NCBI GenBank assembly: GCA_964407925.1 | Contig: CAYOXM010000004.1 | Span: forward strand, 12,389 to 76,388 | DNA length: 64,000 bases | Reading direction: 5' to 3' | From: an uncultured Gammaproteobacteria bacterium | GTDB taxonomy: Bacteria; Patescibacteriota; Patescibacteriia; SG8-24 | Shown here: positions 5,276 to 42,857 of the stretch, one piece after another | How positions within the stretch are numbered: the first letter of the stretch is position 1 | How the letters are laid out: each line of letters starts with the position of its first letter | Program-made: the position numbers and the translations under genes | The notes under the pieces: model-generated | The model's database searches: none | What the model was told of the DNA's origin: nothing | What the model saw: only the letters and a program-made list of their open reading frames with translations

Positions 5276-7431
<2,156 letters not shown>

Positions 7432-8310
7432 CTATGGACAGCTGATGGTACCGCTCTTCACGATGGAACATTCGCTGAACACGACGAAATCGTATACTCC
7501 CGAAAGCGGCGTCTGCCGCGGCAGGGTGATGAGCAGCTTCTGCTCCACACCGGCGAACGTGCCGCGACTGTCGACTTTGACGCGACCGGGGAGGTTCACC
7601 GGCGCGTTCCCCGCGTCGTACCCGCGGATCTGCACGTTCTCGAGCGCCCCCTTTCGGGCGACGAGCCTGATGCGGTACAGCTTGTCCGGCGCCGCGACAG
7701 GGAGCACGGCGGTACCGCCGACGTACTGGTTCACGCCGATGGCCACGTTCGCCGCGTTGAGCGGGTCCCACGCGCCTCCGGGCTGCCAGCCGATGAGCGT
7801 CGCGCCCAGTACCGTACAGCCGGAGCAGGCATCGGTCCACGTCACCTCGACTTTGGCCACGTTCGCGCTCGCCTGCGTATCGGGATTGAAGAGCGCGATT
7901 TCCGTGAAGGAATCCTCGAGGATGGTCCCCGCGTAAATGACGCTCTCCTTGTCGTCGACCGACCGCTTCCATGTCGCGTTGTTGGTGAGGGCGGTGGCGC
8001 TGCTCACCGACGACGGCAGCGTGCCGGTCCGCCGCGCCTTGAACAGGGCGTCTTCCGCGCCGCTTTCGGCCGCGTAGTACGCGACGATGGCGCTGTCGAT
8101 GACGCGGGTCTGCTGGAGCGAACTCAGGATGAGCGAACCCAGACCGACGGACGATATGACGACCGACGACATGACGATGAGCGCCATGAGCAGGACGGTG
8201 CCACGGGAGTCGAAGGCGGAGGGTCGAGAGTGGTGAGTCTCGCGCGCCGAACCTCGCCCCGCGAAAGGACGTTCCACTTTCCACTTTCCGCTTTCCACTG
8301 GACGTACCAT
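7432..8310 (-). CDS. PilX-like minor pilin / pilus-associated protein (PilX_N-type hydrophobic N-terminus); start uncertain
   Basis: ORF 7432..8592; hydrophobic segment 'SRGTVLLMALIVMSSVVISSVGLG' resembles the PilX N-terminal domain. Last gene of the pilin/pseudopilin run. Confidence 0.55.
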   Translation of the reverse strand: MVRPVESGKWKVERPFAGRGSARETHHSRPSAFDSRGTVLLMALIVMSSVVISSVGLGSLILSSLQQTRVIDSAIVAYYAAESGAEDALFKARRTGTLPSSVSSATALTNNATWKRSVDDKESVIYAGTILEDSFTEIALFNPDTQASANVAKVEVTWTDACSGCTVLGATLIGWQPGGAWDPLNAANVAIGVNQYVGGTAVLPVAAPDKLYRIRLVARKGALENVQIRGYDAGNAPVNLPGRVKVDSRGTFAGVEQKLLITLPRQTPLSGVYDFVVFSECSIVKSGTISCP

Positions 8311-8312
8311 AG

Positions 8313-8939
8313 CTATCTCTTGTATTTCCTGTTCGTCGCCGTCGTCTGGAGGTAAACGACGGAACGCTCGGCCTGCCGCTCCGCCGAGCTTTCGAGCATC
8401 AGGACGGCGGTCACGCGCGGCTGGAGGTTGGCGGCATACGTTCCCGTGTTCGGATCGAACGCGTTCGGATCGGTCACGGGACCGATGTAGAACTTCACGT
8501 TGTCCACCTTCACGCCCTTCGGGGTGATCGGCGCCGGCGTTCCCGTGCCGACGGTCACGAGCAGGCACGGCCTGCTGAGCGTGTCCGCGCAATTCGACTC
8601 GTTGCCGGAGTCGCTCACGTGGAAACGAAGCTTCGTGTTCGTGCTGTCGATGAGCGCGAGTTCCCCCTCCGGGACGCCGATGGCGGTTCCGCGCGAAACG
8701 TAATACGCGTAATCGAGCGTCCCGGTGCGCACCTCGCGGACGATCGCCTCCATGGTGAACCGCGCGTCCGCCTGGACGCGTTCCAGGCCGAACATCTTGC
8801 GCTGCGACTTGTTGGCGAGCAGGAAGATGTCCGACGCCGCGACGACGACGGTCGAGAAGATGCCGAGGACGACGAGCAGCTCCATCAGCGTGAAGCCGCG
8901 CGCCGCCGCGATTTTCCGCGCATGGACGGTCCTCCGCAT
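8313..8939 (-). CDS. type IV pilin-like minor pilin (pseudopilin) with class III signal peptide
   Basis: N-terminus MRRTVHARKIAAARG|FTLMELLVVLGIFS: G-1, F+1, E+5 prepilin peptidase motif. Adjacent to the upstream pseudopilin stop. Confidence 0.8.
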   Translation of the reverse strand: MRRTVHARKIAAARGFTLMELLVVLGIFSTVVVAASDIFLLANKSQRKMFGLERVQADARFTMEAIVREVRTGTLDYAYYVSRGTAIGVPEGELALIDSTNTKLRFHVSDSGNESNCADTLSRPCLLVTVGTGTPAPITPKGVKVDNVKFYIGPVTDPNAFDPNTGTYAANLQPRVTAVLMLESSAERQAERSVVYLQTTATNRKYKR

Positions 8940-11045: not shown

Positions 11046-11543
11046 TCATTGGATGCCGCTCTCCGTGGCGGTATGAACGCCCGCGGCAAGGTCGCCGACC
11101 TGGGCGCCGATGCAGAACGCGATCGTGTACGCGCCGCCCGCGGGAGCGGTGTAGCCGTAATCGTTTTGACCGGAAGAGCAGGTCCCGTCGACGGGCGTGG
11201 GAGCCTTCGGCACGAGCCCCATGTAGGTCGTGTCGCCAGAGGCGCACGCGGTCTTCCAGCCGCCGTTCGAGCAGAGCGCGCCGTAGCTGCCGCCGGCGCC
11301 GAGAACGATGGCCGACGCGGCAGTCGGGTACCCGTTGTTTTCCGAATAATAGAGTTCGAGCGCCGTCTGGATCTGCTTGACGTCGGCGACGCGCTTCGAG
11401 TCGCGCGACTTCTGGCGCGCGCTGTTCAAGGCGACGACGGCGAGCGTCGAGAGGATGCCGATGATGGCGATGACCACCAAGAGCTCGATGAGCGTGAAGC
11501 CGGCGTATGCCGGTCGTGAGCCGTCGTTGCGCGTTTTTCGCAT
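11046..11543 (-). CDS. pilA: type IV major pilin paralog 1 (PilA-like), 166 aa
   Basis: Real start at internal Met of ORF 11046..11966: MRKTRNDGSRPAYAG|FTLIELLVVIAIIGIL... The upstream 141 codons of the ORF are R/P-rich noise. C-terminal Cys pair. Confidence 0.85.
   Translation of the reverse strand: MRKTRNDGSRPAYAGFTLIELLVVIAIIGILSTLAVVALNSARQKSRDSKRVADVKQIQTALELYYSENNGYPTAASAIVLGAGGSYGALCSNGGWKTACASGDTTYMGLVPKAPTPVDGTCSSGQNDYGYTAPAGGAYTIAFCIGAQVGDLAAGVHTATESGIQ
11348..11498 (-). repeat. ~150-nt near-identical segment shared by the two tandem pilin genes (copy in pilin paralog 1)
   Basis: GAGTTCGAGCGCCGTCTGGATCTGCTTGACGTCGGCGACGCGCTTCGAGTCGCGCGACTTCTGGCGCGCGCTGTTCAAGGCGACGACGGCGAGCGTCGA...GAGCTCGATGAGCGTGAAGCC is present in both genes (few mismatches). 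It encodes GFTLIELLVVIAIIG...QIQTALELY. Confidence 0.75.
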
Positions 11544-11664: not shown

Positions 11665-12147
11665 TTATTGGATGCCGTTCGGGGTCGCCGTGTGCACGCC
11701 GGCAACGAGGTCGCCGACAGCGCCTCCGAGGCAGAACGCGACCGTATACGTGGTACACGGGGCGGTCGTGCAGGAGTTGAACATGTACGGGTTCGTCGTC
11801 GTGGTGCACGTGCCGTCAAACGGCGTCGGCTTCGCGGGGACCAGACCCATGTAGGTCGTGTCGCCCGAGGCGCACGTGGCCTTCCAGCCGCCGTTCGAGC
11901 AGAGGGCCTTGTAGCTGCCCTGACCGAGTTCCTGCGCTGACGCCACGGCAGGATAGCCGTTCGCATCCGCGAAGTAGAGTTCGAGCGCCGTCTGGATCTG
12001 CTTGACGTCGGCGACGCGCTTCGAGTCGCGCGACTTCTGGCGCGCGCTGTTCAAGGCGACGACGGCGAGCGTCGAAAGCAGGCCGATGATGGCGATGACC
12101 ACCAAGAGCTCGATGAGCGTGAAGCCCTTTTGATTAGATTTCGTCAT
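11665..12147 (-). CDS. pilA: type IV major pilin paralog 2 (PilA-like), 160 aa
   Basis: MTKSNQKG|FTLIELLVVIAIIGLL...; ~55 N-terminal codons are nucleotide-identical to paralog 1. Strong SD (GGGAGGTG) and sigma70-like promoter upstream. Confidence 0.9.
   Translation of the reverse strand: MTKSNQKGFTLIELLVVIAIIGLLSTLAVVALNSARQKSRDSKRVADVKQIQTALELYFADANGYPAVASAQELGQGSYKALCSNGGWKATCASGDTTYMGLVPAKPTPFDGTCTTTTNPYMFNSCTTAPCTTYTVAFCLGGAVGDLVAGVHTATPNGIQ
11973..12123 (-). repeat. ~150-nt near-identical segment (copy in pilin paralog 2)
   Basis: See 11348..11498; direct repeat spacing ~625 nt. Confidence 0.75.
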
Positions 12148-18681: not shown

Positions 18682-21600
18682 CTATTGCGGCGCCGAATCG
18701 GCGAAAATAGGCAGAGTTTTGGTCACGTCGCCGAATCCCGGGGGCGGGTTCACGACCGCCCGACCGTCATACACGAACTGCTCCGAACCCTGCGTGACGC
18801 TCTTGTAGGAACGGCTCAGGTGGAACTGCCGCGCGACGATGAGGCCGTGGAGCGTGAACGGATCGGGACTGTCCGAGAGCGGCGGAGCGACGCTCCAAAA
18901 ACCGTCATCGCCGCCGACGTAGAACGCGCCGACGAGGTTCTTGACGGACCCGTCGACGTAGACGTTGCCTTTGGCGTTCGACCCGTCGTCGACGACGATC
19001 CACCCGAGCGACGCCAACTGACGGAGATCGGTGACGGTCGAGGTGTCGTAGAGGAAATCGCCGTTGACGTAGAGATTGCCGCCGTCGACGAATACCGTGC
19101 CGTTCCCCTTCGTGCCGTCGTTGTAAATCGTATGCGCGCCCACCGTGGCGTCGCCGACGACGCGGAAGACCTTCCCGCCCAGCCGGTTCGAGTAGGAATT
19201 GAGCGTCGCGTCGAGCTGGCCGGGAGGGACGTCGATGACCGTGCCGAACTTTCCGGCGCGAAGGCCGGCGAGGTCGAGCTTGCCGAGAACGGACGAGTAC
19301 GCGTTGCCCGATTTCGGCCGATCGAACTTCACCGTCGCGTTCGGTCCGGCGGCGCCGGCTGCGGCGAGCGCGTCACAGGTCTGCGCGCTGTTGAAGTTGA
19401 TGATCACGTCCTTCGCGGTGACGCAGAACGTGGCGTTGTACTGGTTCGCCGGCGGGACGTCCGGCGCGGTGATGCGCTTCTTTGAGAAGACGTTGCCCTG
19501 CAGCGTCTGGAGCCACGGGTAGAGCAGGTTTTCGCAGCGGTTTGCCCCGGTGCAGGCGGGAGACCCCATCACGTCCGTGCAATCGACGTCACGCTTGCAC
19601 TTCTTGATACCGTCCTGACACAACCCGTAGCCCGGGAAGCCCGGCGCGGTGCCGCCGTCCGTGCACTGCGTGTCATCGAAGCAGACCTGGCCGCCGATGG
19701 TGCAGAGCCCCCACGCCGGCTCGCAAACCTGCGGATCAACGTGGTCGGGCGGCAAGAGCGAATAATCCATGCCGATCGACGGGCCGGGACAGGGGTAATC
19801 GCACACTTCGTCGGAATCGCACTCGCAGACGATTTCGGTATCGATCCTGCACCGGCCGTACTGCTTGTTCGGTTCGCAGACGTCGCCCACGCCGTTCGCG
19901 TTCGCGTCCGTCTGGGAGGCGTTCGGCAGGCCAACGCAGTTATCGCACGCCTTCGGCGACGTGGAGTACACGGTCGTATAGAGCCCTTCGGAGGCGCCAT
20001 CAAGGTCAAAATCGGCGTAGGCGCAACCGTTTCCGGGATCCGGGTCGCCGGGACCGGGGACGTCGTTACAGACGAAAATCGCCTTGCGGTTCGACTCCAC
20101 GGTGTCGCCGTCGCTGTCGCGGACGCCGACTGTCACGTAATACATCCCGTCTGGAATGGCAGTCGGAAGCGACACCTCCGCCTGGCACTGCATGGTATTG
20201 CCCGTACCGCCGCCAATCAGCCCGACGAACGTCGCGGTCGGCGGTGGGACGGGTCCGGGCGGACCGCCGACGACGACGCCTGCCGGCGTACGAACGTACA
20301 CCTCGCACGGCTGGTTGAATGAGTCACCGGGTGCGGTAATGAAGTTTGCCGAAACGGTCGTCTTTAGATTACCCGTGCGGAAAAACGGCTTGCCGGGGGT
20401 GACCGTCAGGGCCGAGGTCAGCGCCGGCGTGAGGTTCACGGAAAACGCGGGCGCGGAAAAATACGCGCCGAGGTTGCCAGCGCCGTCCTCCGCGCGCGCC
20501 TGAATCGTCAGCGCCATATCGCTCGGAAACAGGAGGGGTGCCGTGAGGCAATCGGGTCCTGTCGGAAAAACGGTGCCGTTGATCTTCACGTCACAGCGGC
20601 AAATGCCCGACGAAAGGGGCGGCGCTCCCCCGGGATCGGTCGGGACCCCCCGAAACATCCGCATTTGCTGCGAGAGTGACGGGGCGACGCCATAGGGGAC
20701 GCGTATCGTGCCGCCCATGGCGGCTTCCGGTTCGACTTCGATGACCGTCGGGACCGTACTCTCGTACAAGGTAGTCGAAAAATTCACGTCGCCATATTCC
20801 GCGACGTCACCGGGCTGCTTGAGCATCGAAATGCTGATCGGGTAGTTCTTCGTCGCCGCGGGAGTCGCGGGCGTGGCGCAGGTCAGCGTGACGTCGAACG
20901 GTCCGAAATTCCCGCCCGGCGTGTTGTAGATCTGCACGGCGTGGCCGGCGACGGCGAGGAAGGTCAGCCGCGCGTGCGGCAGCCCCGTGACCGAATCCAG
21001 GAGCGTGCAGGTCGGGTTCGCCGCGGCGTACGGGTAATACTTCGCCGCGTCGGTGTTGTCGCCGACGATGATCGTAACCGAAGAATACGTCCCTGACCCG
21101 GTGAACCGGAGCACGTCGGTCGAAGACACGTGCGCAGCGACGCGGACGGTCGCGAGGACGGTGGGATTGTTGCTCGTGAACGCGGTCGGCGCGGTCGAGC
21201 GCGGCACGACCTGGCACGTCGCGTTCGTCCAATTCTTCGGCGCGCAGGTACCGACGCCCCAGCAGCTCGAGTCCGCGCAGTCGATCGCCGCATCCCCGTC
21301 GTTGTCCTTGCCGTCACCGCAGGACGATTCTCCCGCCGGCTGACAGGCCTGCAGCTCGGGACCGAGACTGCCCGCGCACTGGGAGTCCGCGCAATCGACC
21401 TTGGCGTCCGAGTCGTTGTCGAAGCCGTCGCCGCACTCGTCGTTCGTGTCCTCCGCCGTCGCGCACATCGCCGCATGCCCGAGACTGCCGAGGTTAGGCC
21501 TGTTCGCCGCCCCCGCGTCGGCGGCGCAGTCCGTCACGTCCGCGCAGTCCTTGATGACGTCAGTGTCGTTGTCGCTGCCGTCGGCGCAAGAATCGTACGT

Positions 21601-23007
21601 GACGTCCTCGCGCGACGGGCACGGCCCGCAATTGCCGAACTTCCGCTTGCAATCGGTATCCGCGCAATCCTGCGGCCCGTCACCGTCGTCGTCGAAGGCG
21701 TTGCCGCAGTACTGATAGCGCTGGCCGAGGTCGAATTCCTTGTCGTAACAGACCTTGGAGGTGTCGAGCGGGTTGACGACGCCCTTGCAGTCGGTGTCGG
21801 CGCAATCCGAAAGGTGGTCGAGGTCGTCATCGACGCCGTTGAAGCACTGCGCGTCGGCATCAACGCCTCCCGCCGTCTTGTTCTCGCTCGCGGGGCAGGC
21901 GGCGTTGCCGGCGCAATCGTAATCCAGGCAGCGGAGCTCGCCGCCCACGGTGATTTCGCCGCCGGTCAGCGGCGCGTTGTCCCACGAGGGGTCGTAGCTC
22001 TTGTCCTTGTCGTTGTCGATGAAATCGGAGCAGCTCGTCTCCGTGGCGGGGCAGCCAAAAGCCGTTTTCTTCCAACAGATGGTGTTGACGTTGCCGCCCG
22101 CCGTCACGTCGAAGACGTTATCGACGCAGTCGGAAAGGCCGTCGGCGTCGTTGTCGAACGCGTCGCCGCACGTCGTAAGGCCGGTCTCGTTGCCGAACTG
22201 GCAAAGCGCCGTGCCCGACGGCTGCCCGACCTTGTTGTTGCAGCTGCTGTCGAGGCAGTCCGGCTTGCCGTCGGCGTCGTTGTCGAATCCGTCGTTGCAG
22301 GTGTTCTCCGGCTGCTCGCAGAGCGCGCCGCTCCCGACATTGCCCGTCTTGCCGGAACACTGCACGTCGGCACAGTCGCCGCCGAAGTCGAGATCGTTAT
22401 CGATGGCATCGGCGCAGGGGAAATCCATGCCCGAAATCGCGCCCCACGACGTCGATTCGTCACCGTTCGACGGCGCGCCCGCGTCGACGTAGAACGTGAG
22501 CGTCTGGCCGCCCGTATCGCCGTTCTGGATGACGCTCAGGCTGAAGTCGTAGGAACCCGCGGCGAGGCCGGAGAACTTCACGCTCATCACCTGGTCGACG
22601 ATGCACCCGGCGCATCCGTCGTTGTCCTTGCGCTCATAGGCGGTGCGTCCCGGATTCACGTCCTCGAGCGGCAGGATGACCGCGCTGTTCGTCGGATTCG
22701 CGTACTTGTCCCAAGTCGTGAAGGCGGGAAGGTCGAACAGGATGTACGAGACGAGACCCGCGGTGCTGTACACGCCGCCGTTCAGACGGACCTTGAGTTC
22801 GCCGCTCGGCGAAAGATGCTGGGTGTACGAGTAGTTCACGGTCTGCCCGCCGACGACCATCGATCCGGTACAGACGTTGCCCGCGCAGGGCGTGCCCGAG
22901 ACGAGCGCGCGCGCCGGCATGGCCGAACGCGCGCCAAACCAGACGACCGTCGCGAGGACGAAGGCCGACATGATGCCGATGGCGGTGGCGCGCGGGGCGG
23001 TCCTCAT
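18682..23007 (-). CDS. giant secreted repeat protein (1441 aa) with 9 or more MopE/thrombospondin-type-3-like Cys-framed Asp-rich repeats; candidate pilus-associated adhesin
   Basis: Start at MRTAPRATAIGIMSAFVLATVVWFGARSAMPARA (signal peptide). Repeats CADAIDNDLDFGGDCADVQC, CNDGFDNDADGKPDCLDSSC, CGDAFDNDADGLSDCVDN, CFNGVDDDLDHLSDCADTDC, CGNAFDDDGDGPQDCADTDC, CADGSDNDTDVIKDCADVTDC, CGDGFDNDSDAKVDCADSQC, CGDGKDNDGDAAIDCADSSC; later a TSP3-like 'QTDANANGVGDVCE' and Cys-rich segments. Confidence 0.8.
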   Translation of the reverse strand: MRTAPRATAIGIMSAFVLATVVWFGARSAMPARALVSGTPCAGNVCTGSMVVGGQTVNYSYTQHLSPSGELKVRLNGGVYSTAGLVSYILFDLPAFTTWDKYANPTNSAVILPLEDVNPGRTAYERKDNDGCAGCIVDQVMSVKFSGLAAGSYDFSLSVIQNGDTGGQTLTFYVDAGAPSNGDESTSWGAISGMDFPCADAIDNDLDFGGDCADVQCSGKTGNVGSGALCEQPENTCNDGFDNDADGKPDCLDSSCNNKVGQPSGTALCQFGNETGLTTCGDAFDNDADGLSDCVDNVFDVTAGGNVNTICWKKTAFGCPATETSCSDFIDNDKDKSYDPSWDNAPLTGGEITVGGELRCLDYDCAGNAACPASENKTAGGVDADAQCFNGVDDDLDHLSDCADTDCKGVVNPLDTSKVCYDKEFDLGQRYQYCGNAFDDDGDGPQDCADTDCKRKFGNCGPCPSREDVTYDSCADGSDNDTDVIKDCADVTDCAADAGAANRPNLGSLGHAAMCATAEDTNDECGDGFDNDSDAKVDCADSQCAGSLGPELQACQPAGESSCGDGKDNDGDAAIDCADSSCWGVGTCAPKNWTNATCQVVPRSTAPTAFTSNNPTVLATVRVAAHVSSTDVLRFTGSGTYSSVTIIVGDNTDAAKYYPYAAANPTCTLLDSVTGLPHARLTFLAVAGHAVQIYNTPGGNFGPFDVTLTCATPATPAATKNYPISISMLKQPGDVAEYGDVNFSTTLYESTVPTVIEVEPEAAMGGTIRVPYGVAPSLSQQMRMFRGVPTDPGGAPPLSSGICRCDVKINGTVFPTGPDCLTAPLLFPSDMALTIQARAEDGAGNLGAYFSAPAFSVNLTPALTSALTVTPGKPFFRTGNLKTTVSANFITAPGDSFNQPCEVYVRTPAGVVVGGPPGPVPPPTATFVGLIGGGTGNTMQCQAEVSLPTAIPDGMYYVTVGVRDSDGDTVESNRKAIFVCNDVPGPGDPDPGNGCAYADFDLDGASEGLYTTVYSTSPKACDNCVGLPNASQTDANANGVGDVCEPNKQYGRCRIDTEIVCECDSDEVCDYPCPGPSIGMDYSLLPPDHVDPQVCEPAWGLCTIGGQVCFDDTQCTDGGTAPGFPGYGLCQDGIKKCKRDVDCTDVMGSPACTGANRCENLLYPWLQTLQGNVFSKKRITAPDVPPANQYNATFCVTAKDVIINFNSAQTCDALAAAGAAGPNATVKFDRPKSGNAYSSVLGKLDLAGLRAGKFGTVIDVPPGQLDATLNSYSNRLGGKVFRVVGDATVGAHTIYNDGTKGNGTVFVDGGNLYVNGDFLYDTSTVTDLRQLASLGWIVVDDGSNAKGNVYVDGSVKNLVGAFYVGGDDGFWSVAPPLSDSPDPFTLHGLIVARQFHLSRSYKSVTQGSEQFVYDGRAVVNPPPGFGDVTKTLPIFADSAPQ

Positions 23008-24674
23008 GGTTTTTTGGTCACGTCGCCCGTCGCCCCGCAGCACAGGTCGCCGGACTGCGCGCCGGGGGAGAAGCAGTCGTCGGTTCCGCTCGCGTTATAC
23101 TTCGCCGCGCTCGTGCAGTCGCAATCGAAGTACCCGTCGTTGGCGTCGCCGTAGCCGCACTCGAGCCCGTCGACGATCTGATGGAGCGCGGGCTGGGAAA
23201 TCGTCCCCTGCCGCGTGCAGCACAGCGTCCCGCTCCCGAGCACGTAGGCGGGATCGGAGCAATCGATGATGCCGTCGCCCGCCTGACCCCAGGTGCACCG
23301 CGTGCGCGGCAGCGTCTGGCCCGAACACTGGTAGGACACGCCCTTGCAATAACGGTCAGCACAGTCGACGTACCCGTTCCCGTCGTTGTCGATCGTGTCG
23401 GCGCAGTTGCCCTCGACGGGAATGCCGCGCCGCATCGCGAGCGCGAACGACGCGTCGCCGGTGAAGTCGCACTGCGCGGCGTTCTTGAAGTAGTTGTCGG
23501 GAAAACCCGCGTTGCACTTGATGGCGAGATACTGGTCCTGCTGGGCGTCGAGGCCGGTCCAGGTGTTGCCGTGCGCGAATACCGGCTTGCGCGACGTCGT
23601 GGCGTCGATGATTTCGCGGCACTTGCCCGCGACTTCGTCGCAAATCTCCGTTCCCGCGGCGCATTGCGCGTCCGAAACGCAGGCCGACCCGTTCGCGTAC
23701 CCGGCGATGAGGCATTTGTTCAGGTACCAGAGGCTGTTCTGCTGGATGTTGTCCGCCGCGACCACCGTGTAGTCGAGCGTCGTGGTGCTGCCGCGCACGG
23801 TCGAGGTCATGACCTTGTTCACGATGCGCTTCGACGCGTCAGGGAGCAGGATCTCGCATTCCAGAAACTGATTTACGGCGGCGGAAAAACCCTGGAAGGT
23901 CACGGACATCTTGTTCCGGTGGGTGCCGGGGTACGTGCACGTCCCCGCGACGGTATCGCACTTGAGGAGCGGCGGCGTCGTGCAGTTCGCGTCGCTCACG
24001 CACGGCGGCATCGCCGTCGCGGTCGGTTCGTATATGCCCTCGGGACGCCGGACGGTGCCGAGGTCCGCAAGCACCCACGACGTGTTGGCGATACTGAAAT
24101 CGATCCAACCAATGCCGGTGCCGTCGGAATTGCCGCTCCACGCCCAGTGGTCGCCCGCCGCGCCTTTGGTGAAGTTGCCGTTCACGTTGTTGAGCACGAC
24201 GTGGTAATTGGAGGTCACGCAGTCGTCCGCGCCGACGTCTTTGTCGCAATTCAGCGAAATCCAGCCGTTCGCGCCGAGACTGACCACTTGCGCCCATCCC
24301 CAGAACTGATCCTGTTTGGCGTTGAACGTGCCGCGGTACTGCGCGTACGGCGCGCCGCCCTCCGGCGTCGTGCCCGTGCAGGTCGTGCCGAAGCAGATCC
24401 ACCCCATCGTTTCCGACCACGCCCAGCCGGTGAGGTCGCCGCGATCGGGGAAGCCGGGGGCGTTATCGATTGCCAAACCGTAATCCGCCGTCGCACAAGT
24501 AGCGTCGTTCGTGCAGTTGAGCGAGACCCAACCGATGGTTCCCGACCACGCCCAGCCGGTGACGTTGTCGGAGGTACCGGCGAACGCGCCTTGCGCGGCA
24601 AAAAAAACTCCGGCGGTAACGCCCAGCATTACCGAAAAAAATCGTATGGCGGCTCCCTTAAAAATGGGTCCCAT
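23004..24674 (-). CDS. secreted repeat protein (556 aa) with 4x GWAWS...GWI(S/D)(L/F) repeats and one MopE-like motif
   Basis: Start MGPIFKGAAIRFFSVMLGVTAGVFFAAQGAFA (signal peptide). Repeats TGWAWSGTIGWVSLNC, TGWAWSETMGWICFG, FWGWAQVVSLGANGWISLNC, DHWAWSGNSDGTGIGWIDFS; CADTIDNDGNGYVDCADRYC. Stop overlaps the giant-protein start (ATGA). Confidence 0.75.
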   Translation of the reverse strand: MGPIFKGAAIRFFSVMLGVTAGVFFAAQGAFAGTSDNVTGWAWSGTIGWVSLNCTNDATCATADYGLAIDNAPGFPDRGDLTGWAWSETMGWICFGTTCTGTTPEGGAPYAQYRGTFNAKQDQFWGWAQVVSLGANGWISLNCDKDVGADDCVTSNYHVVLNNVNGNFTKGAAGDHWAWSGNSDGTGIGWIDFSIANTSWVLADLGTVRRPEGIYEPTATAMPPCVSDANCTTPPLLKCDTVAGTCTYPGTHRNKMSVTFQGFSAAVNQFLECEILLPDASKRIVNKVMTSTVRGSTTTLDYTVVAADNIQQNSLWYLNKCLIAGYANGSACVSDAQCAAGTEICDEVAGKCREIIDATTSRKPVFAHGNTWTGLDAQQDQYLAIKCNAGFPDNYFKNAAQCDFTGDASFALAMRRGIPVEGNCADTIDNDGNGYVDCADRYCKGVSYQCSGQTLPRTRCTWGQAGDGIIDCSDPAYVLGSGTLCCTRQGTISQPALHQIVDGLECGYGDANDGYFDCDCTSAAKYNASGTDDCFSPGAQSGDLCCGATGDVTKKP

Positions 24675-24691
24675 ACTCGTGCTTGAGTATA
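24675..24691 (-). promoter_or_regulatory. TATACT -10 box 11 nt upstream of the GWAWS-repeat protein ATG (leaderless or short-leader transcript?)
   Basis: Minus strand ...TTTTTCGTGCTATACTCAAGCACGAGT-ATG; no SD. Confidence 0.35.
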
Positions 24692-24694
24692 GCA

Positions 24695-24725
24695 CGAAAA
24701 ATAGCCGATTTCACGGCTATTTTTA
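24695..24725. terminator. rho-independent terminator after rnhA (perfect 11-bp stem)
   Basis: AAAAATAGCCG-atttca-CGGCTATTTTT; on the minus strand the hairpin is followed by TTTTTCG. It lies between the rnhA stop and the GWAWS-protein start. Confidence 0.75.
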
Positions 24726-24748: not shown

Positions 24749-25153
24749 TTACGACGAATGACGGTCGAGCGCCTCATTGACGAGCCGGTCGGCGTCCTTG
24801 TTTTTTTCCCGCCGAACGTGGGTGAAACGCACTTTTTTGAAGCCCAATTTCAGGTTATGGACGCGCATGAAGAGCGCCGCGATGCCGGGGTTGCGGACGC
24901 GGTACTCGCCGTTGAGCTGTTTTACGGCCAGCTCCGAGTCCATGTACATCTCGACCTCATCGGCACCGAGCTCCTTGGCATGCTCGAGTCCGTCGATGAT
25001 CGCCATGTATTCGGCGTAATTGTTGGTCTGGGTCCCGAGGAAGCGGCCGTGCTCCTTGAGGACGGTGCCGTCCTCGGCGGTAAGGTAGGCGCCGCAGGCC
25101 GCAGGCCCCGGATTGCCGCGGCTGCCGCCGTCGGTGTGAATGATGATTTTCAT
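24749..25153 (-). CDS. rnhA: ribonuclease HI
   Basis: Start MKIIIHTDGGSRGNPGPAACG (RNase H type 1 DEDD catalytic region: TDGGS..., EYMAI, NKDADRL). Confidence 0.85.
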   Translation of the reverse strand: MKIIIHTDGGSRGNPGPAACGAYLTAEDGTVLKEHGRFLGTQTNNYAEYMAIIDGLEHAKELGADEVEMYMDSELAVKQLNGEYRVRNPGIAALFMRVHNLKLGFKKVRFTHVRREKNKDADRLVNEALDRHSS

Positions 25154-25245
25154 TGGCTGAGGTTCAGAGCTTGAGGGTTCAGAGGTCAAAGGTTTACACG
25201 CTCTAACCTTTGAAGCTCTGAAACTCTACCCTTTTCTTCCGTCTG
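25154..25245 (-). repeat. intergenic imperfect-palindrome element B, abutting rnhA ATG and containing the recJ stop codon
   Basis: Plus strand: GAGGTTCAGAGCTTGAGGGTTCAGAGGTCAAAGGTT-tacacgctct-AACCTTTGAAGCTCTGAAACTCTACCCTTTTC. Long imperfect hairpin; recJ reads through it, and the TGA stop lies in AGGTCAAAGG. Confidence 0.7.
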
Positions 25246-26985
25246 CCGCACGTCGACAAGCTTGAGTTGGATTTCCTTGCGGCCGTTCCAGGCGTTGATG
25301 CCGATCTCGACGACCGCGTCGACGGTCATGCCGGGCATCAGCCCCTCCGCCTTTTCGACAAAATTAAAACCGATGAGCTTCGCCTCCTTGGGAAGGTCGC
25401 CGCGCGCGGTCATGCGGACGGTCTTGCCGTTCTTGCCGATCATGTCGACCGCGGAGAGCAGCAGGCCGCGGAGCAGGAATTTCGGCCGCGGGTTGCCCTC
25501 GCCGAAGGGTTCGAGCTTGGCAAGCCAGTCGACGAGTTCCCACGTCACCTGACTCATGCGGAGTTCCGCGTCGATGTCGACGACGGGACGCAAATCCTTG
25601 CCGGCGAGCTGCTCCTCGGCGTAGGCCTCGATCGCCGCGACGAACCCGCGGTAATTTTCCTCCCCCTCGATGGTGAGGCCGCAGGCTTGCGGGTGACCGC
25701 CGTAGCGCGCGAGAAATTTCTGCGCGCCGTCCATGCCGGCGACGAGATTGAACCCGGGGACGCTGCGCCCGGAACCGACGATATGCCCGTCGTCGTTGCC
25801 GAAGACGAACGCCGGAACGCCGAATTCGGCGGTGATCTTCCCGGCGACGAGTCCGACGATGCCCGCCGACCAGCCGTCACCGCAGACGCAGTGGACCTTG
25901 CGGCCCGGCGGCGCGGCGGCGACTTCGGCGCGCGCGGCATTCATGATCTGCTCGGTGTATTTCTGGCGGTCGCGGTTCACCTGGTCGAGCTTGGCCGCCG
26001 CGGCGGTCGCCTCCTCGTCGGTCTCGGCCATCAGGCACTTGAACGCGAGCTCGGCGTGCTCCATGCGCGAGGCGGCGTTGATGCGCGGTCCGATGGAGAA
26101 ACCGACCGACGTCGTGTCGAGCGAACCGAACTCGAGCCCCGCGACTTCGATCAGCTTGCGCAGCCCCGGACGCCGCGTCTTGTTGAGCACCACGAGGCCG
26201 TACCGCTCGAGCGTGCGGTTCTCCCCGACGAGCGGCATCACGTCGGTGACGGTCGCGATGGAGACGAGGTCCAGGAGCCACTTGTCGTACCCCGGCTCAA
26301 ACGGCGAGCCCTGCTTGGCGCAATACGCGATAAACCCGCAGGCGAACTTGAACGCCACGCCGACCGCGGCGAGCTTCTTGTACGGATACGTCTCGCCATC
26401 GACGAGCGGGTGCAGGATGACGCACTCAGGGATGCGTTCGGGAATCTGGTGATGGTCAACGACGATGGTGTCCATCCCCTTTTCCGACGCAAGCGCGATC
26501 TCGGCAGCGCAGCCGATGCCGCAATCGACGGTGATCATCACCCTGTTACCCGCGGCCGCGAGCGCCTCGACCGTCGCCGGCCGCACGCCGTAGCCTTCTT
26601 TTTCGCGATGCGGGATGTAGCTCGTGAAGAGCGACGGATCCTTGCCGAGACGTTTTGCCGCGTCACGGAAGGTGGTCATGAGCACGACCGAACCCGTCAC
26701 GCCGTCAGCGTCGTAGTCGCCGTGAATGACGACCTTTTCGCCATCACGAATCGCGCGCCAGACGCGCTCGCAGGCCCGTTCCATGTCGCGGAAAAGGTAC
26801 GGGTCGTGGATGTCCTGGCCGTAGTCAGGCAAAAGGAACTCGTCCACCGCTTCTTGCGTGGTGATGCCGCGGTTCGCAAGGAGCGCAAGCGCGACGGGAT
26901 GGATTTCGGGAAATCGGGCGCGCAGTTCCTCGGACGGAGGCGGCGCGACCTGCCAGCGGGATCGCATAACCCGTTCAGCATACAC
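25186..26985 (-). CDS. recJ: single-stranded-DNA-specific exonuclease RecJ
   Basis: 599 aa; DHH motifs (VIHGDYDADGV, DHH), DHHA1 domain. The C-terminal ~20 aa and the stop codon lie inside intergenic repeat element B. Confidence 0.9.
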   Translation of the reverse strand: MYAERVMRSRWQVAPPPSEELRARFPEIHPVALALLANRGITTQEAVDEFLLPDYGQDIHDPYLFRDMERACERVWRAIRDGEKVVIHGDYDADGVTGSVVLMTTFRDAAKRLGKDPSLFTSYIPHREKEGYGVRPATVEALAAAGNRVMITVDCGIGCAAEIALASEKGMDTIVVDHHQIPERIPECVILHPLVDGETYPYKKLAAVGVAFKFACGFIAYCAKQGSPFEPGYDKWLLDLVSIATVTDVMPLVGENRTLERYGLVVLNKTRRPGLRKLIEVAGLEFGSLDTTSVGFSIGPRINAASRMEHAELAFKCLMAETDEEATAAAAKLDQVNRDRQKYTEQIMNAARAEVAAAPPGRKVHCVCGDGWSAGIVGLVAGKITAEFGVPAFVFGNDDGHIVGSGRSVPGFNLVAGMDGAQKFLARYGGHPQACGLTIEGEENYRGFVAAIEAYAEEQLAGKDLRPVVDIDAELRMSQVTWELVDWLAKLEPFGEGNPRPKFLLRGLLLSAVDMIGKNGKTVRMTARGDLPKEAKLIGFNFVEKAEGLMPGMTVDAVVEIGINAWNGRKEIQLKLVDVRQTEEKGRVSELQRLERVNL

Positions 26986-30804: not shown

Positions 30805-31200
30805 ATGGACCGAGAAAAACGCCTGCTCGCCTGCGAAACCGCCGGCTCTATCGCCTGGTTCGCCATGGACGCGAGCTGGATGCTGGGCCTGCCGGTCCCG
30901 GCCGCCAGCCTCGCCGTTCCGACGGTGCTGCTCAACCTGCTCATTTTCCGGTGGACCGTCCGGACCTGGCCGAACCTGCTCGTCACCGCGGCGATGGCCG
31001 CATGGGCCTGCATGAACGTCCTGTGGATGTGCGCCGACCTGAAGCTCGTCGCCTGGGGACTCCCCGTCGCGAAGGGCTTCTGCGTCGCCGGCGGCATCCT
31101 CCTCGCCGCCGCGCTCATCGGCGCGACGCGCTGGACTGACGCGCTCGAGGCGCTCCTGCGACGGTTCCGCCGGCTGCGTCTCCGCAGCCGCGAAAAATAA
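30805..31200 (+). CDS. hypothetical small integral membrane protein
   Basis: Internal Met start (MDREKRLLACE...) of ORF 30754..31200; four predicted TM helices. One of the few plus-strand genes; followed by a bidirectional terminator. Confidence 0.5.
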   Translation: MDREKRLLACETAGSIAWFAMDASWMLGLPVPAASLAVPTVLLNLLIFRWTVRTWPNLLVTAAMAAWACMNVLWMCADLKLVAWGLPVAKGFCVAGGILLAAALIGATRWTDALEALLRRFRRLRLRSREK

Positions 31201-31227
31201 ACGGTCCGCCCAGGGCGGACCGTTTTC
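31201..31227. terminator. bidirectional terminator between convergent membrane-protein gene and ackA
   Basis: ACGGTCCGCCC-AGG-GCGGACCGT followed by TTTTCTT on plus; A-rich/T-rich on the other side. Confidence 0.75.
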
Positions 31228-32382
31228 TTATTGCTTGAGCGCCCGTTTCGCTTCCGTGGCGATCATCAGCTCCTCGTTCGTCGGAACGACGAGCACTTTC
31301 GTCCTCCCGGGAAGCTTCAGCATGCCCATCACTTTCTTGCGGATGTCCTCGCTCCGTTCGCCGACGCCGGCAGTGAACACGACCGCGTCCGCGCCGCCCA
31401 TGAGCGTCGCATACGAACCGACGTATCGCGCGACGTCGTAGCAGAACATCTCGATGGCGAGGTTCGCGCGGTATTTCGTCTCCGCCGACGGCTTTTCCGC
31501 GAGCTTGTAGCCGGGAATCTTGTATCCTGCCGCGCTCATCACGTCGCGCAGATCCTTGTACCCCGATACGCCGAGGAGGCCGGACTGCTTGTTGAGCACG
31601 TCGTCGACCTGCTGCTCGGTCATCCCGAACGTGCGGATCATGTACAGCGGGATCGCTGGATCGATGTCGCCGCAGCGCGTGGACATGGTAAGGCCCTCGA
31701 GCGGGGTGAAGCCCATCGTCGTGTCGAACGCCTTGCCGTTCATGACCGCGGTGACGGACGAGCCCGACCCGAGGTGGCACGAAACGATTTTCGCCCTTCT
31801 GTAGGGCTTTTTCAGCATTTTCGCCGCCTGCTCGGTGACGTAGCGGTGCGAGATGCCGTGGAACCCGTACTTCCGGATCTTGTGCTTGGCGTAGTACTCC
31901 CACGGCAGCGCGTACATGAACGCGAAATCGGGAATCGTCTTGTAAAAGGCGGTGTCAAACACCGCGACGTTCGCGGCGCGGGGCAAAAGCGTTCGGCAAG
32001 AGTCGATGCCGGAGAGGTTCGGCGGGTTATGGAGCGGTGCGAGACGGTTGTAGGCGCGCAGTTTCTCGAGGTTCGCGTCCGTAATGACGGTCGGTTCGGT
32101 AAATTCCTCTCCGCCATGCACGACGCGGTGACCGAAGGTGACGATGCGCTTCGTATCGATGCCGCCGTTCACGAGCGCGGAAAAGACCTTCGTGAGCGCG
32201 TCCTTGTGGTCGGGTACCGCGTCAAACTCGAGCTTCTTTTCATCCGCGCCGACCGCGACCTTCATGAACGGCTTATCGAGACCGATGCGCTCGACAAGGC
32301 CGCCAGCGAGCTCCTTGAGGCTCTTCGCCTCGAACAGCTTGAATTTCAGGCTCGAGCTGCCGGAATTGACGACGAAAATCAT
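31228..32382 (-). CDS. ackA: acetate kinase
   Basis: 384 aa; 'MIFVVNSGSSSLKFKLF' N-terminus and full-length acetate/propionate kinase family features. Confidence 0.95.
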   Translation of the reverse strand: MIFVVNSGSSSLKFKLFEAKSLKELAGGLVERIGLDKPFMKVAVGADEKKLEFDAVPDHKDALTKVFSALVNGGIDTKRIVTFGHRVVHGGEEFTEPTVITDANLEKLRAYNRLAPLHNPPNLSGIDSCRTLLPRAANVAVFDTAFYKTIPDFAFMYALPWEYYAKHKIRKYGFHGISHRYVTEQAAKMLKKPYRRAKIVSCHLGSGSSVTAVMNGKAFDTTMGFTPLEGLTMSTRCGDIDPAIPLYMIRTFGMTEQQVDDVLNKQSGLLGVSGYKDLRDVMSAAGYKIPGYKLAEKPSAETKYRANLAIEMFCYDVARYVGSYATLMGGADAVVFTAGVGERSEDIRKKVMGMLKLPGRTKVLVVPTNEELMIATEAKRALKQ

Positions 32383-41089: not shown

Positions 41090-41950
41090 ATGGCTGATAA
41101 ACTCAAAAAATCCGGCCTCGCCGTTCTCGTCGGGCGATCGAACGTGGGCAAGTCCACGCTCCTCAACTCGCTCGTCGGCACCAAGGTCGCCATCACGACG
41201 CCCAAGCCGCAGACCACGCGGCATATCATCCAAGGCGTCGTCCACGACCCGCGCGGGCAGGTCGTCTTCGTCGACACTCCCGGCATCTTCACGCGCATCC
41301 CCGATACGCTGACGGCGAAGCTGAACGAGAAGGCGAAGGACGCCCTCGACGGCATCGACGTCCTGCTGTACGTCGTCGATCCCACGCGCCACGTCGGCGA
41401 CGAGGAGAAGGCAGTCCACCGCCTCGTGCGGAACGCGACGGTTCCGAAAATCCTCGTCATCAACAAGAGCGACCTGAAGGGCCCCTACGCCGACGAATAT
41501 CGGGCATGGGAGGAAGAGTTCGACGAGGTCATCGAAATCTCCGCGCTCAATCGCCGCAACCTGAAGGCGCTCGTCGACGCGATCTTCGGCTACCTGAAAG
41601 AGGGTGAGCCGCTCTACCCGCCGGACCAGATTTCCGGCGTCGAAAACCGGTTCTGGCTCGAGGAGCTTTTCCGCGAAAAGGTGTTCATGAAGATGCACGA
41701 GGAAATCCCCTACACCACCGCCGTGCACGTGAGCGAAGTCGCGGCGCGCGACAACGGCGTGACGTACGTCCGCGCGACGATCGTCACGACGTCGCCGCGA
41801 TACAAAAAGATGCTCATCGGCGCCGGCGCGCGGACCGTCAAGGACATCGGCCGGGCCGTGCGCAAGGAACTCGAGGAGGTCAGCGGAAAAAAATATTTCA
41901 TCGACCTCGACGTGCAGGTCGAAGAGCGCTGGCAGGAACGGTTCGAATGA
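41090..41950 (+). CDS. era: GTPase Era
   Basis: 286 aa; G1 'GRSNVGKSTL', 'DTPG', 'NKSD', C-terminal KH domain. Confidence 0.95.
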   Translation: MADKLKKSGLAVLVGRSNVGKSTLLNSLVGTKVAITTPKPQTTRHIIQGVVHDPRGQVVFVDTPGIFTRIPDTLTAKLNEKAKDALDGIDVLLYVVDPTRHVGDEEKAVHRLVRNATVPKILVINKSDLKGPYADEYRAWEEEFDEVIEISALNRRNLKALVDAIFGYLKEGEPLYPPDQISGVENRFWLEELFREKVFMKMHEEIPYTTAVHVSEVAARDNGVTYVRATIVTTSPRYKKMLIGAGARTVKDIGRAVRKELEEVSGKKYFIDLDVQVEERWQERFE

Positions 41951-42071
41951 TGGAGAGGTTGAAAGGTTGAGAGTTAATAAGGTTAAAAGACCCGATTGAA
42001 TTTCGCTTACCTCTCAACCTTTTAACCTTTCAACCTTTTAACCTTGCTGCCGCCTGTTATACTGCCCCCGT
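41951..42071 (+). repeat. intergenic imperfect-palindrome element C between era and the LOG gene
   Basis: GGAGAGGTTGAAAGGTTGAGAGTTAATAAGGTTAAAAG ... CTTACCTCTCAACCTTTTAACCTTTCAACCTTTTAACCTTG, then TGTTATACT (extended -10-like) 8 nt before the ATG. Confidence 0.7.
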
Positions 42072-42797: not shown

Positions 42798-42821
42798 CAC
42801 GGCGCGCCGCGAAGAAAAAAC

Positions 42822-42852
42822 CGCCCCGCGGAAGCGCGGGGCGGTTTTATTT
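42822..42852. terminator. bidirectional terminator between the LOG gene and the convergent membrane-protein gene
   Basis: AAAAAA-CCGCCCCGCG-GAAG-CGCGGGGCGG-TTTTATTTT. Confidence 0.8.
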
Positions 42853-42857
42853 TCGGG

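Follow-up and report, generated by a model that had tools for sequence, protein, structure and literature searches.

The minus strand of the window, by which we mean the whole 64,000-nt stretch of DNA that was analysed, carries recJ (25186..26985) followed by rnhA (24749..25153). Protein matches assign this DNA to high-GC Patescibacteria, within the Uhrbacteria/Parcubacteria-type part of the CPR. The recJ open reading frame (ORF) encodes 599 aa when counted from its GTG and contains the domains DHH, DHHA1 and RecJ_OB; the database form of the protein (P0243) has 593 aa and starts at the Met at 26967. The rnhA gene encodes an RNase H of 134 aa (MKIIIHTDGG...), and its ATG (25153-25151) is conserved as a start in orthologues. 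The order recJ-then-rnhA is kept across Patescibacteria down to 45% RecJ identity, where the two genes are separated by short plain spacers. The end of the recJ-rnhA unit is evidently marked by a terminator-like hairpin at 24697..24724 (AAAAATAGCCG-ATTTCA-CGGCTATTTTT), which has flanking A and T runs and lies 24 nt past the rnhA stop; it was read from the sequence, and the consensus terminator scanner did not score it. Directly downstream of rnhA, also on the minus strand, lie the genes of two very large secreted-looking proteins of 1453 and 563 aa (18682-23043 and 23004-24695), which contain many Cys/Asp-rich repeats (CxDxxDNDxDGxxDCxDxxC), and the same arrangement of large proteins downstream of rnhA is found at loci L038 and L041.

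Between recJ and rnhA lies an imperfect palindromic element of 76 nt (25155..25230, minus strand), a low-GC island in a window of 64.7% GC, which is built of 7–8-nt units of the GGTYNARA type (GGTTNARA). Its predicted fold is a single long, imperfect hairpin (−35 kcal/mol; z = −2.7 for either strand, with one shuffle in 200 doing as well), whose 5' strand is at 25198-25230, apical loop at 25194-25197 and 3' strand at 25155-25193. The recJ frame is free of stops upstream of the element, crosses the whole 5' strand and the apical loop, and meets its first in-frame stop 6–8 nt past the loop in the 3' strand. This stop is the TGA at 25186-25188 (minus strand; 'tca' on the plus strand, within AGGTCAAAGG), in the first unit (AACCTTTGA) of the 3' arm. 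The C-terminal end of the ORF reads ...VDVRQTEEKGRVSELQRLERVNL, and the ending before the TGA is also given as ...LKLVDVRQTEEKGRVSELQRLERVNL. That recJ runs through the element and ends at a TGA inside it, as the initial annotation of this stretch had proposed, is confirmed by the ORF, the stop and the fold. The same annotation had attributed about 20 codons to the element; the tail is indeed element-encoded, but the hairpin holds 14 codons and the stop (25186..25230, minus strand; peptide GRVSELQRLERVNL), and the QTEEK that precedes them is a linker. Likewise, the rnhA ATG does follow after a short spacer, which measures 32 nt (25154..25185, minus strand) instead of the 30 nt first given. The spacer, read directly, is pyrimidine-rich and is the remainder of the 3' arm; the element was therefore rightly said to supply the 5' context of rnhA, as its 3' arm makes up the whole 32-nt rnhA leader.

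The element-encoded residues lie outside the known domains of the enzyme. The RecJ_OB profile of Pfam is matched in full (positions 1-107 of 107), up to residue D578, whose codon is at 25252..25254 (minus strand). All sequence 3' of this codon is tail, and the 21 residues past it are beyond any Pfam domain. The tail begins with the purine-rich linker codons for VRQTEEK (25231..25251, minus strand), which are outside the hairpin. In the AlphaFold model, built on 42 homologues, the RecJ core has a mean pLDDT of 90 and its last strand ends at D578, whereas the tail has a pLDDT of about 50 and is modelled, with low confidence, as a helix. A Q(S)TEEK prefix is common to the window linker and to the element-free-looking orthologue P0241, which suggests that the boundary between native and element sequence may be after K585 and that the element may have replaced about 11 native codons.

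Searches of known motif classes placed the element in none of them. Rfam gave no match in the 64 kb at the gathering threshold and otherwise chance-level matches only (E ≥ 0.6), and consensus scans identified neither a promoter nor a terminator in the element. An integron attC site was rejected: the polarity is reversed here, with GGTT... first and ...AACC last as against RYYYAAC at the 5' side and GTTRRRY at the 3' side, and the flanking genes are syntenic housekeeping genes, not cassettes. A TIGR array was also dropped, as there is a single hairpin here and no Tas-type protein among the window proteins scanned.

In an alignment of 120 RecJ homologues, the sequences are solid up to ...IQLKLVDVR and then pass into unalignable tails of 0-40 residues. 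The only orthologue with a related tail is P0001 (VADEQVRVSEPQRLEHAKL), which comes from locus L017 of another sample; 10 of 19 tail residues are identical between the window and P0001, compared with 96% in the core. L017 has an orthologous element in the same place (score 72, z = 28), with a TAA stop in the first units of its 3' arm. Because this independent contig carries the same ORF entering the orthologous element, the recJ reading frame is evidently no assembly artefact. Two further orthologues, which are within the 90% cluster of P0001 and are known here from protein sequence, have different ends. The core of P0241 is 98.1% identical to that of P0001 and 95.8% identical to that of the window, and its tail (QSTEEKAAVTKAAAHAV) is unrelated; the core of P0242 is 93.6-94.6% identical to the other three, and its tail (PAEETEKVKNEKMKSLAR) is likewise unrelated. 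The P0241 tail needs GC-rich codons and, as far as the protein sequence goes, cannot derive from the element. Should the P0241 junction have an ATGA overlap (GCCGTATGAAA) and no hairpin, it would represent an unoccupied site behind a core that is 98% identical. The alignment thus bears out the proposal of an element-supplied, lineage-specific tail: the 120 orthologues are unalignable after ...LKLVDVR, the tail is shared only by the element carrier P0001/L017, and two orthologues with 94-98% identical cores have unrelated tails. The converse, the same tail conserved in repeat-free genomes, was not found. The remodelling of the gene end by the repeat also stands, since the tail is element-derived and orthologues without the element end differently. 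We observed that the RecJ tail is hypervariable throughout the clade, with a hairpin or none (high-GC loci L001, L017-L020 and L038-L044).

The junctions of recJ and rnhA in the high-GC clade take two forms. The first, found at L039, L040, L043, L044, L038, L041 and on the P0015 contig, is an ATGA overlap or a plain 5-27-nt spacer with no element. The comparison of syntenic loci, which had been put forward as a check, thereby gave relatives at 69-76% identity that are element-free and have an ATGA recJ/rnhA overlap or a short plain spacer. The second form is a unit-built hairpin, in which the position of the recJ stop varies. L001/L018 and L020 have it in the first unit (AAG GTT TAG), L042 has it where the 5' arm ends, and the window, L017 and L019 have it past the loop. 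The distance from this stop to the rnhA ATG is 32-34 nt in four of the six element-bearing recJ loci. On a neighbor-joining (NJ) tree of the conserved RecJ core, the presence of the hairpin is patchy (e.g., L042 has one and its sister L039 does not), and the cross-genome scores of the recJ-locus hairpins (23-31) are no higher than those between unlinked loci. Taken together, these two observations mean that several gains, losses or allelic exchanges are needed. Orthology of the recJ-locus hairpins across genomes is, at scores of 23-31, unsupported beyond the pair of the window and L017. Tail endings in KV or RV (AAGGTTTAG) were tried as a mark of a stop in the first unit and failed, with only L001 and L020 fitting; in L043, L044, L039 and the P0015 contig, the V-stop is a GTATGA overlap with the rnhA ATG.

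The divergence between the window and L017 bears on the age of the insertion. Four-fold sites are 71% identical (29% diverged), so the shared insertion at recJ apparently predates the split from L017 and is not very recent. The identity is 62% in the linker and 62% in the 3' arm when compared without gaps, with unit-scale indels evident, while the 5' arm core (window 25198-25230 vs L017 3643-3675) is identical at 27 of 29 positions. This asymmetry may hint that the peptide, or the arm as sequence, is under weak selection; it is only a hint because it comes from two sequences and from a region chosen after the data had been seen. The consensus hairpin common to the window and L017 retains 20 pairs despite about 25% sequence change, and between these two sequences three one-sided changes keep the pairing and there are no compensatory double changes.

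Hairpins of similar build are present elsewhere in the window. Chains of at least three GGTY-type units at 6-9-nt spacing occur at 7355-7408, 25160-25226 and 41956-42044 only, each time as two facing arms; the six chains observed compare with a mean of two per mononucleotide shuffle of the window. In this architecture, an arm is a short tandem array of 7–8-nt GGTTNARA-type units and the opposite arm is its complement. Both look-alikes of the recJ hairpin are low in GC. One (7349..7431, minus strand) takes up the whole gap from an unnamed pilus-operon gene (stop 7432-7434) to ligA (ATG 7348). The other (41951..42044, plus strand; −41 kcal/mol, z = −5.7) comes directly after the era stop (41948-41950) and upstream of a TGnTATACT box and the ATG (42072) of a LOG-family gene. 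All copies seen fill junctions between co-directional genes, in extragenic positions at gene ends, and begin within a few nt of the stop that precedes them and end 3-25 nt short of the ATG that follows. Most elements have stops in two or three frames, and an ORF that enters an element is for this reason soon terminated. Ordinary terminators with a GC stem and a U-tract exist elsewhere in the window (31193-31231 and 42808-42857), which sets the junction hairpins apart as a separate class.

The resemblance among these copies is limited. In pairwise comparison, the similarity among the three window copies is confined to local matches of 12-19 nt (scores 23-38), and the exact 19-mer around the recJ stop has no second match in the window even when up to three mismatches are allowed. 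The repeat family that the initial annotation had recognised is therefore present as unit-built hairpins at three junctions, but it has no near-identical copies; we regard it as apparently real but loose. No transposase, including RAYT (the IS200/IS605-like Y1 type), was found among the 26 proteins of the 64-kb window that were scanned against Pfam or in the annotated syntenic loci, and the window and the compared loci contain no IS, though the element arms are inverted repeats. A search of the literature turned up no account of such repeats from Patescibacteria. A fourth intercistronic hairpin, at 8212-8300 (minus-strand sense, about −45 kcal/mol), is built of a different unit, GGAAAGYG; it also has a purine-rich 5' arm and a pyrimidine-rich 3' arm, and lies between the stop of a pilin-like gene (8313-8315) and the next ATG (8174-8176). 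An N-terminal pilin motif is common to at least five genes in the region from 8.8 to 12.1 kb, and the tandem paralogous pilin-like genes at 11048-11501 and 11667-12126 are direct repeats of 71-90% identity. Hairpins with yet other units are located just upstream of recJ in L001 (3873-3958; GGTATCAGG) and in L043 (1918-2013; GGATKCAGG).

The turnover of such hairpins can be followed at the era-LOG junction. At L045, L047 and L040 (Era identity 94%, 87% and 71%), the junction is a plain 16-36-nt spacer. The window has an GGTTGAAA-type hairpin of 95 nt in this place. In L046 (93% Era identity, from the sample that also yielded L017), the hairpin is a different one and does not align with that of the window. 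Because this junction is empty, filled or differently filled at 87-94% Era identity, turnover among close relatives is apparently real. The inserts are always between the era stop and the conserved TGnTATACT box, and no target-site duplication was seen when the filled sites (window and L046) were compared with the empty ones (L045, L047 and L040). The recent mobility that had been suggested for the recJ element is thus not borne out: L017 is already 29% diverged, filled and empty junctions differ without a target-site duplication, and the 26 proteins include no transposase. The L046 era copy was also considered as kin of the L017/window recJ copy and was rejected, the two having only a 13-nt match (score 26). 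The box itself (window 42050-42071) is 8-13 nt before the LOG ATG in all five genomes (window, L045, L046, L047 and L040) and resembles an extended -10 element placed for a leaderless or very-short-leader mRNA.

We count the element among the junction hairpins of high-GC Patescibacteria, a loose class with rapid turnover. The likely explanation is that a REP/REPIN- or MITE-like palindromic junction element occupies an otherwise tight recJ-rnhA junction, with the RecJ tail as its by-product. The recJ frame reads the 5' arm and the loop and ends in the 3' arm, and in this way appends a 14-residue peptide after a short linker past the OB domain. This peptide is probably a by-product of insertion and not a selected part of RecJ, because it lies outside the folded part of the protein, lacks conservation and gives way to other tails in near-identical orthologues. 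Since the terminator-like hairpin comes after rnhA, the palindrome would form within a recJ-rnhA co-transcript. Ribosomes that finish recJ would melt it and terminate 32 nt before the rnhA AUG, and rnhA could still be translated by re-initiation after recJ termination in the opened stem. The 32-nt spacer has no GGAG, GAGG or AGGA ahead of the rnhA ATG, and a consensus scan of it found no promoter-like site for rnhA; with a leader that lacks a Shine-Dalgarno sequence, translation of rnhA probably depends on the ribosomes finishing recJ. In element-free relatives, the ATGA overlap would do the job of coupling, and in L001 and L020, where the stop is at the stem foot, the folded hairpin would still hold stop and start close together. 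An in-frame TTG (25187-25189) overlaps the recJ TGA and would add 12 codons (MTSEPSSSEPQP), all of them 3' arm, to rnhA; it is probably not an rnhA start, since the codon is CTA in L017.

Several other explanations have to be weighed against the palindromic junction element, and one of them concerns how the palindromes originate. They may grow in place: slippage would duplicate the 7–8-nt units and copying with a strand switch (template switch) would make the inverted arm, so that no transposition is involved and the recJ tail is expanded local sequence. The copies share units and no alignable consensus, the filled junctions have no target-site duplication, and the 3' arms of the window and L017 differ by unit-scale indels, all of which agrees with such growth. 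So do the sister genomes L039 and L042, in which the element-free ...CGAGTAAAAGTATGAAA resembles single units of the 5' arm GAGGTAAAAAGGTTAAAAGGTGTAAAAGTT, and the junction hairpins with other units (GGAAAGYG at 8212-8300, GGTATCAGG in L001 and GGATKCAGG in L043). However, units of the same AAAGGTT type turn up at junctions that are not linked and in separate genomes, which counts against local origin because independent origin predicts it only with an added sequence-specific bias; moreover, the recJ copy of L042 resembles the lgt copy of L039 (score 38, z = 10), as copy-and-paste within a lineage would predict. We hold growth in place to be possible, if tentative, and lean slightly towards arrival by a non-autonomous mobile element. 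Arrival as a mobile element has its own difficulties, in that the window copies share 12-19-nt matches and are never near-identical, unlike young REP or MITE families, and in that neither a target-site duplication at era-LOG nor a transposase among the 26 window proteins was found. The palindromic junction element as a whole must also accommodate the patchy presence on the tree, which needs several gains or losses either way, the absence of compensatory pair changes in the two sequences compared, and the 5' arm core (27/29 vs 71% at four-fold sites), which hints at constraint on the coding arm or the peptide.

In other readings, something at the junction is selected. The hairpins could be intercistronic RNA elements under selection and not selfish or neutral DNA, serving as an RNase III processing or mRNA-stability site or as a keeper of adjacent stop and start for coupling; the read-in of recJ would then be part of opening the hairpin, and the tail could still be a by-product. 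Every copy seen fills a co-directional gene junction, the downstream genes have no Shine-Dalgarno sequence, the hairpin with its 20 shared pairs is kept in the window and L017 despite about 25% change, and the recJ stop is 32-34 nt from the rnhA ATG in four of six element-bearing loci. On the other hand, presence, absence and replacement next to flanking proteins of 87-98% identity argue against an indispensable function, compensatory covariation is lacking, and the 3' arm changes no more slowly than neutral sequence; the bias in location counts for little because neighbouring genes in these compact genomes are mostly co-directional in any case. On balance, a selected RNA seems rather unlikely to us. 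High-GC Patescibacteria might instead carry a junction-palindrome class new to science, in which the purine-rich 5' and the pyrimidine-rich 3' arm are each a tandem array of 7–9-nt units and both target duplications and a conserved consensus are lacking; its members would repeatedly be gained at, or exchanged into, the few nt between stop and start, and be tolerated or used since the hairpin keeps stop and start adjacent for coupling. This reading is quite doubtful at present; if it were true, the read-in of recJ would be one visible consequence. We think it very unlikely that selection maintains the tail as a true C-terminal extension of RecJ, such as a partner-binding helix, with the palindrome being incidental. 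The window and L017 have RVSE.QRLE in common, their 5' arm cores agree at 27/29 positions against 71% of four-fold sites, and AlphaFold gives a helix of low confidence, but P0241, whose core is 98.1% identical to that of P0001, has an unrelated tail that needs GC-rich codons, and the tail is absent from all other orthologues, has a pLDDT of about 50 and is identical at 10 of 19 positions as against 96% of the core. Finally, a long stable stem at a gene end could be taken for a transcription terminator or attenuator between recJ and rnhA. This is highly improbable: the stem is AU/GU-rich with no U-tract after it, the consensus scan finds no terminator in it, ordinary terminators are available at 31193-31231 and 42808-42857 in addition to the terminator-like hairpin 24 nt past rnhA, and the spacer offers rnhA no promoter-like site.

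Comparable gene ends are known from other bacteria. In Coxiella burnetii, QMITE1 and QMITE2 overlap the 3' ends of genes, including pntAA (42 bp), nagZ (50 bp), mutT, recN and ruvB, and in enhC it depends on an indel whether the QMITE contributes 33 residues; cleavage of the stem by RNase III is a further possibility that the authors mention (Wachter et al. 2018, PMC5896051). The likeness lies in a small hairpin-forming repeat at the 3' ends of housekeeping genes that supplies the last residues and/or the stop, and the recJ gene agrees with enhC in that the terminal codons and the stop are inside the repeat and orthologues without the repeat end differently. QMITEs, however, can be recognised as one family of many copies that bear terminal inverted and direct repeats, whereas the element here shares only 7–8-nt units with its look-alikes, has no duplication seen and resides in a Patescibacterium. 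The target-site duplication expected of a MITE is also missing at the era-LOG junction. REPINs are hairpins of two inverted REPs that are mobilised by RAYT transposases (Bertels and Rainey 2011, PMC3116915; PMC3337134). Like them, the junction elements have inverted arms around a spacer, form hairpins of about 70-100 nt, are non-coding, sit extragenically at gene ends in operons and occur as lineage-specific families. REPINs differ in having a REP consensus of 20-40 nt, tens to hundreds of copies and a cognate RAYT, and neither a REP consensus nor a RAYT is visible in this 64-kb window, where each arm is an array of short tandem units and the copies are very unlike one another. The palindromic hairpin and the extragenic position thus agree with REPs and REPINs, while a conserved multi-copy consensus is not found within the 64 kb.

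Rickettsia palindromic elements (RPEs) are translated in frame within host proteins (review, PMC10969869). Both there and here, a palindromic repeat is translated as part of a host protein and the added peptide is tolerated; RPEs, however, are about 150 bp long, lie inside ORFs and keep the frame open, whereas here the element ends the gene. Liang, Rudd and Deutscher reportedly found in 2015 that REP hairpins at most about 15 nt from a stop make the gene before them less strongly expressed, by way of ribosome stalling and tmRNA. Both cases have in common a stable hairpin placed at the stop or right behind it, with which the terminating ribosome would collide or which it would unwind. In contrast to those hairpins, the recJ stop is inside the stem and after the loop, so that the ribosome would already have opened the hairpin on reaching it. 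The phenomenon is therefore already documented in other bacteria, while the repeat family is undescribed and oddly built.

The recJ-rnhA junction illustrates that the ends of essential genes in very compact CPR genomes get rewritten. Even RecJ proteins with 98% identical cores have different tails, and among the causes is a small palindrome that has taken over a junction at which recJ and rnhA normally overlap. For annotation, the last 14 residues of the window RecJ should not be counted as part of the enzyme. The junction hairpins also offer a tractable case for distinguishing spread by transposition from local generation, and for learning how translational coupling survives an 80-nt insertion. 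A scan of viral contigs for AAGGTTRAAAGGTTRARAG gave 15 matches, mostly in AT-rich phage with tandem units and no inverted arm, which were uninformative for the junction hairpins. One viral contig of 70% GC (L051) has five tandem GGTTGAAA units at 5940-5990, again with no inverted arm, and on the other strand these units form a (CAACCTTT)n leader directly upstream of an ATG.
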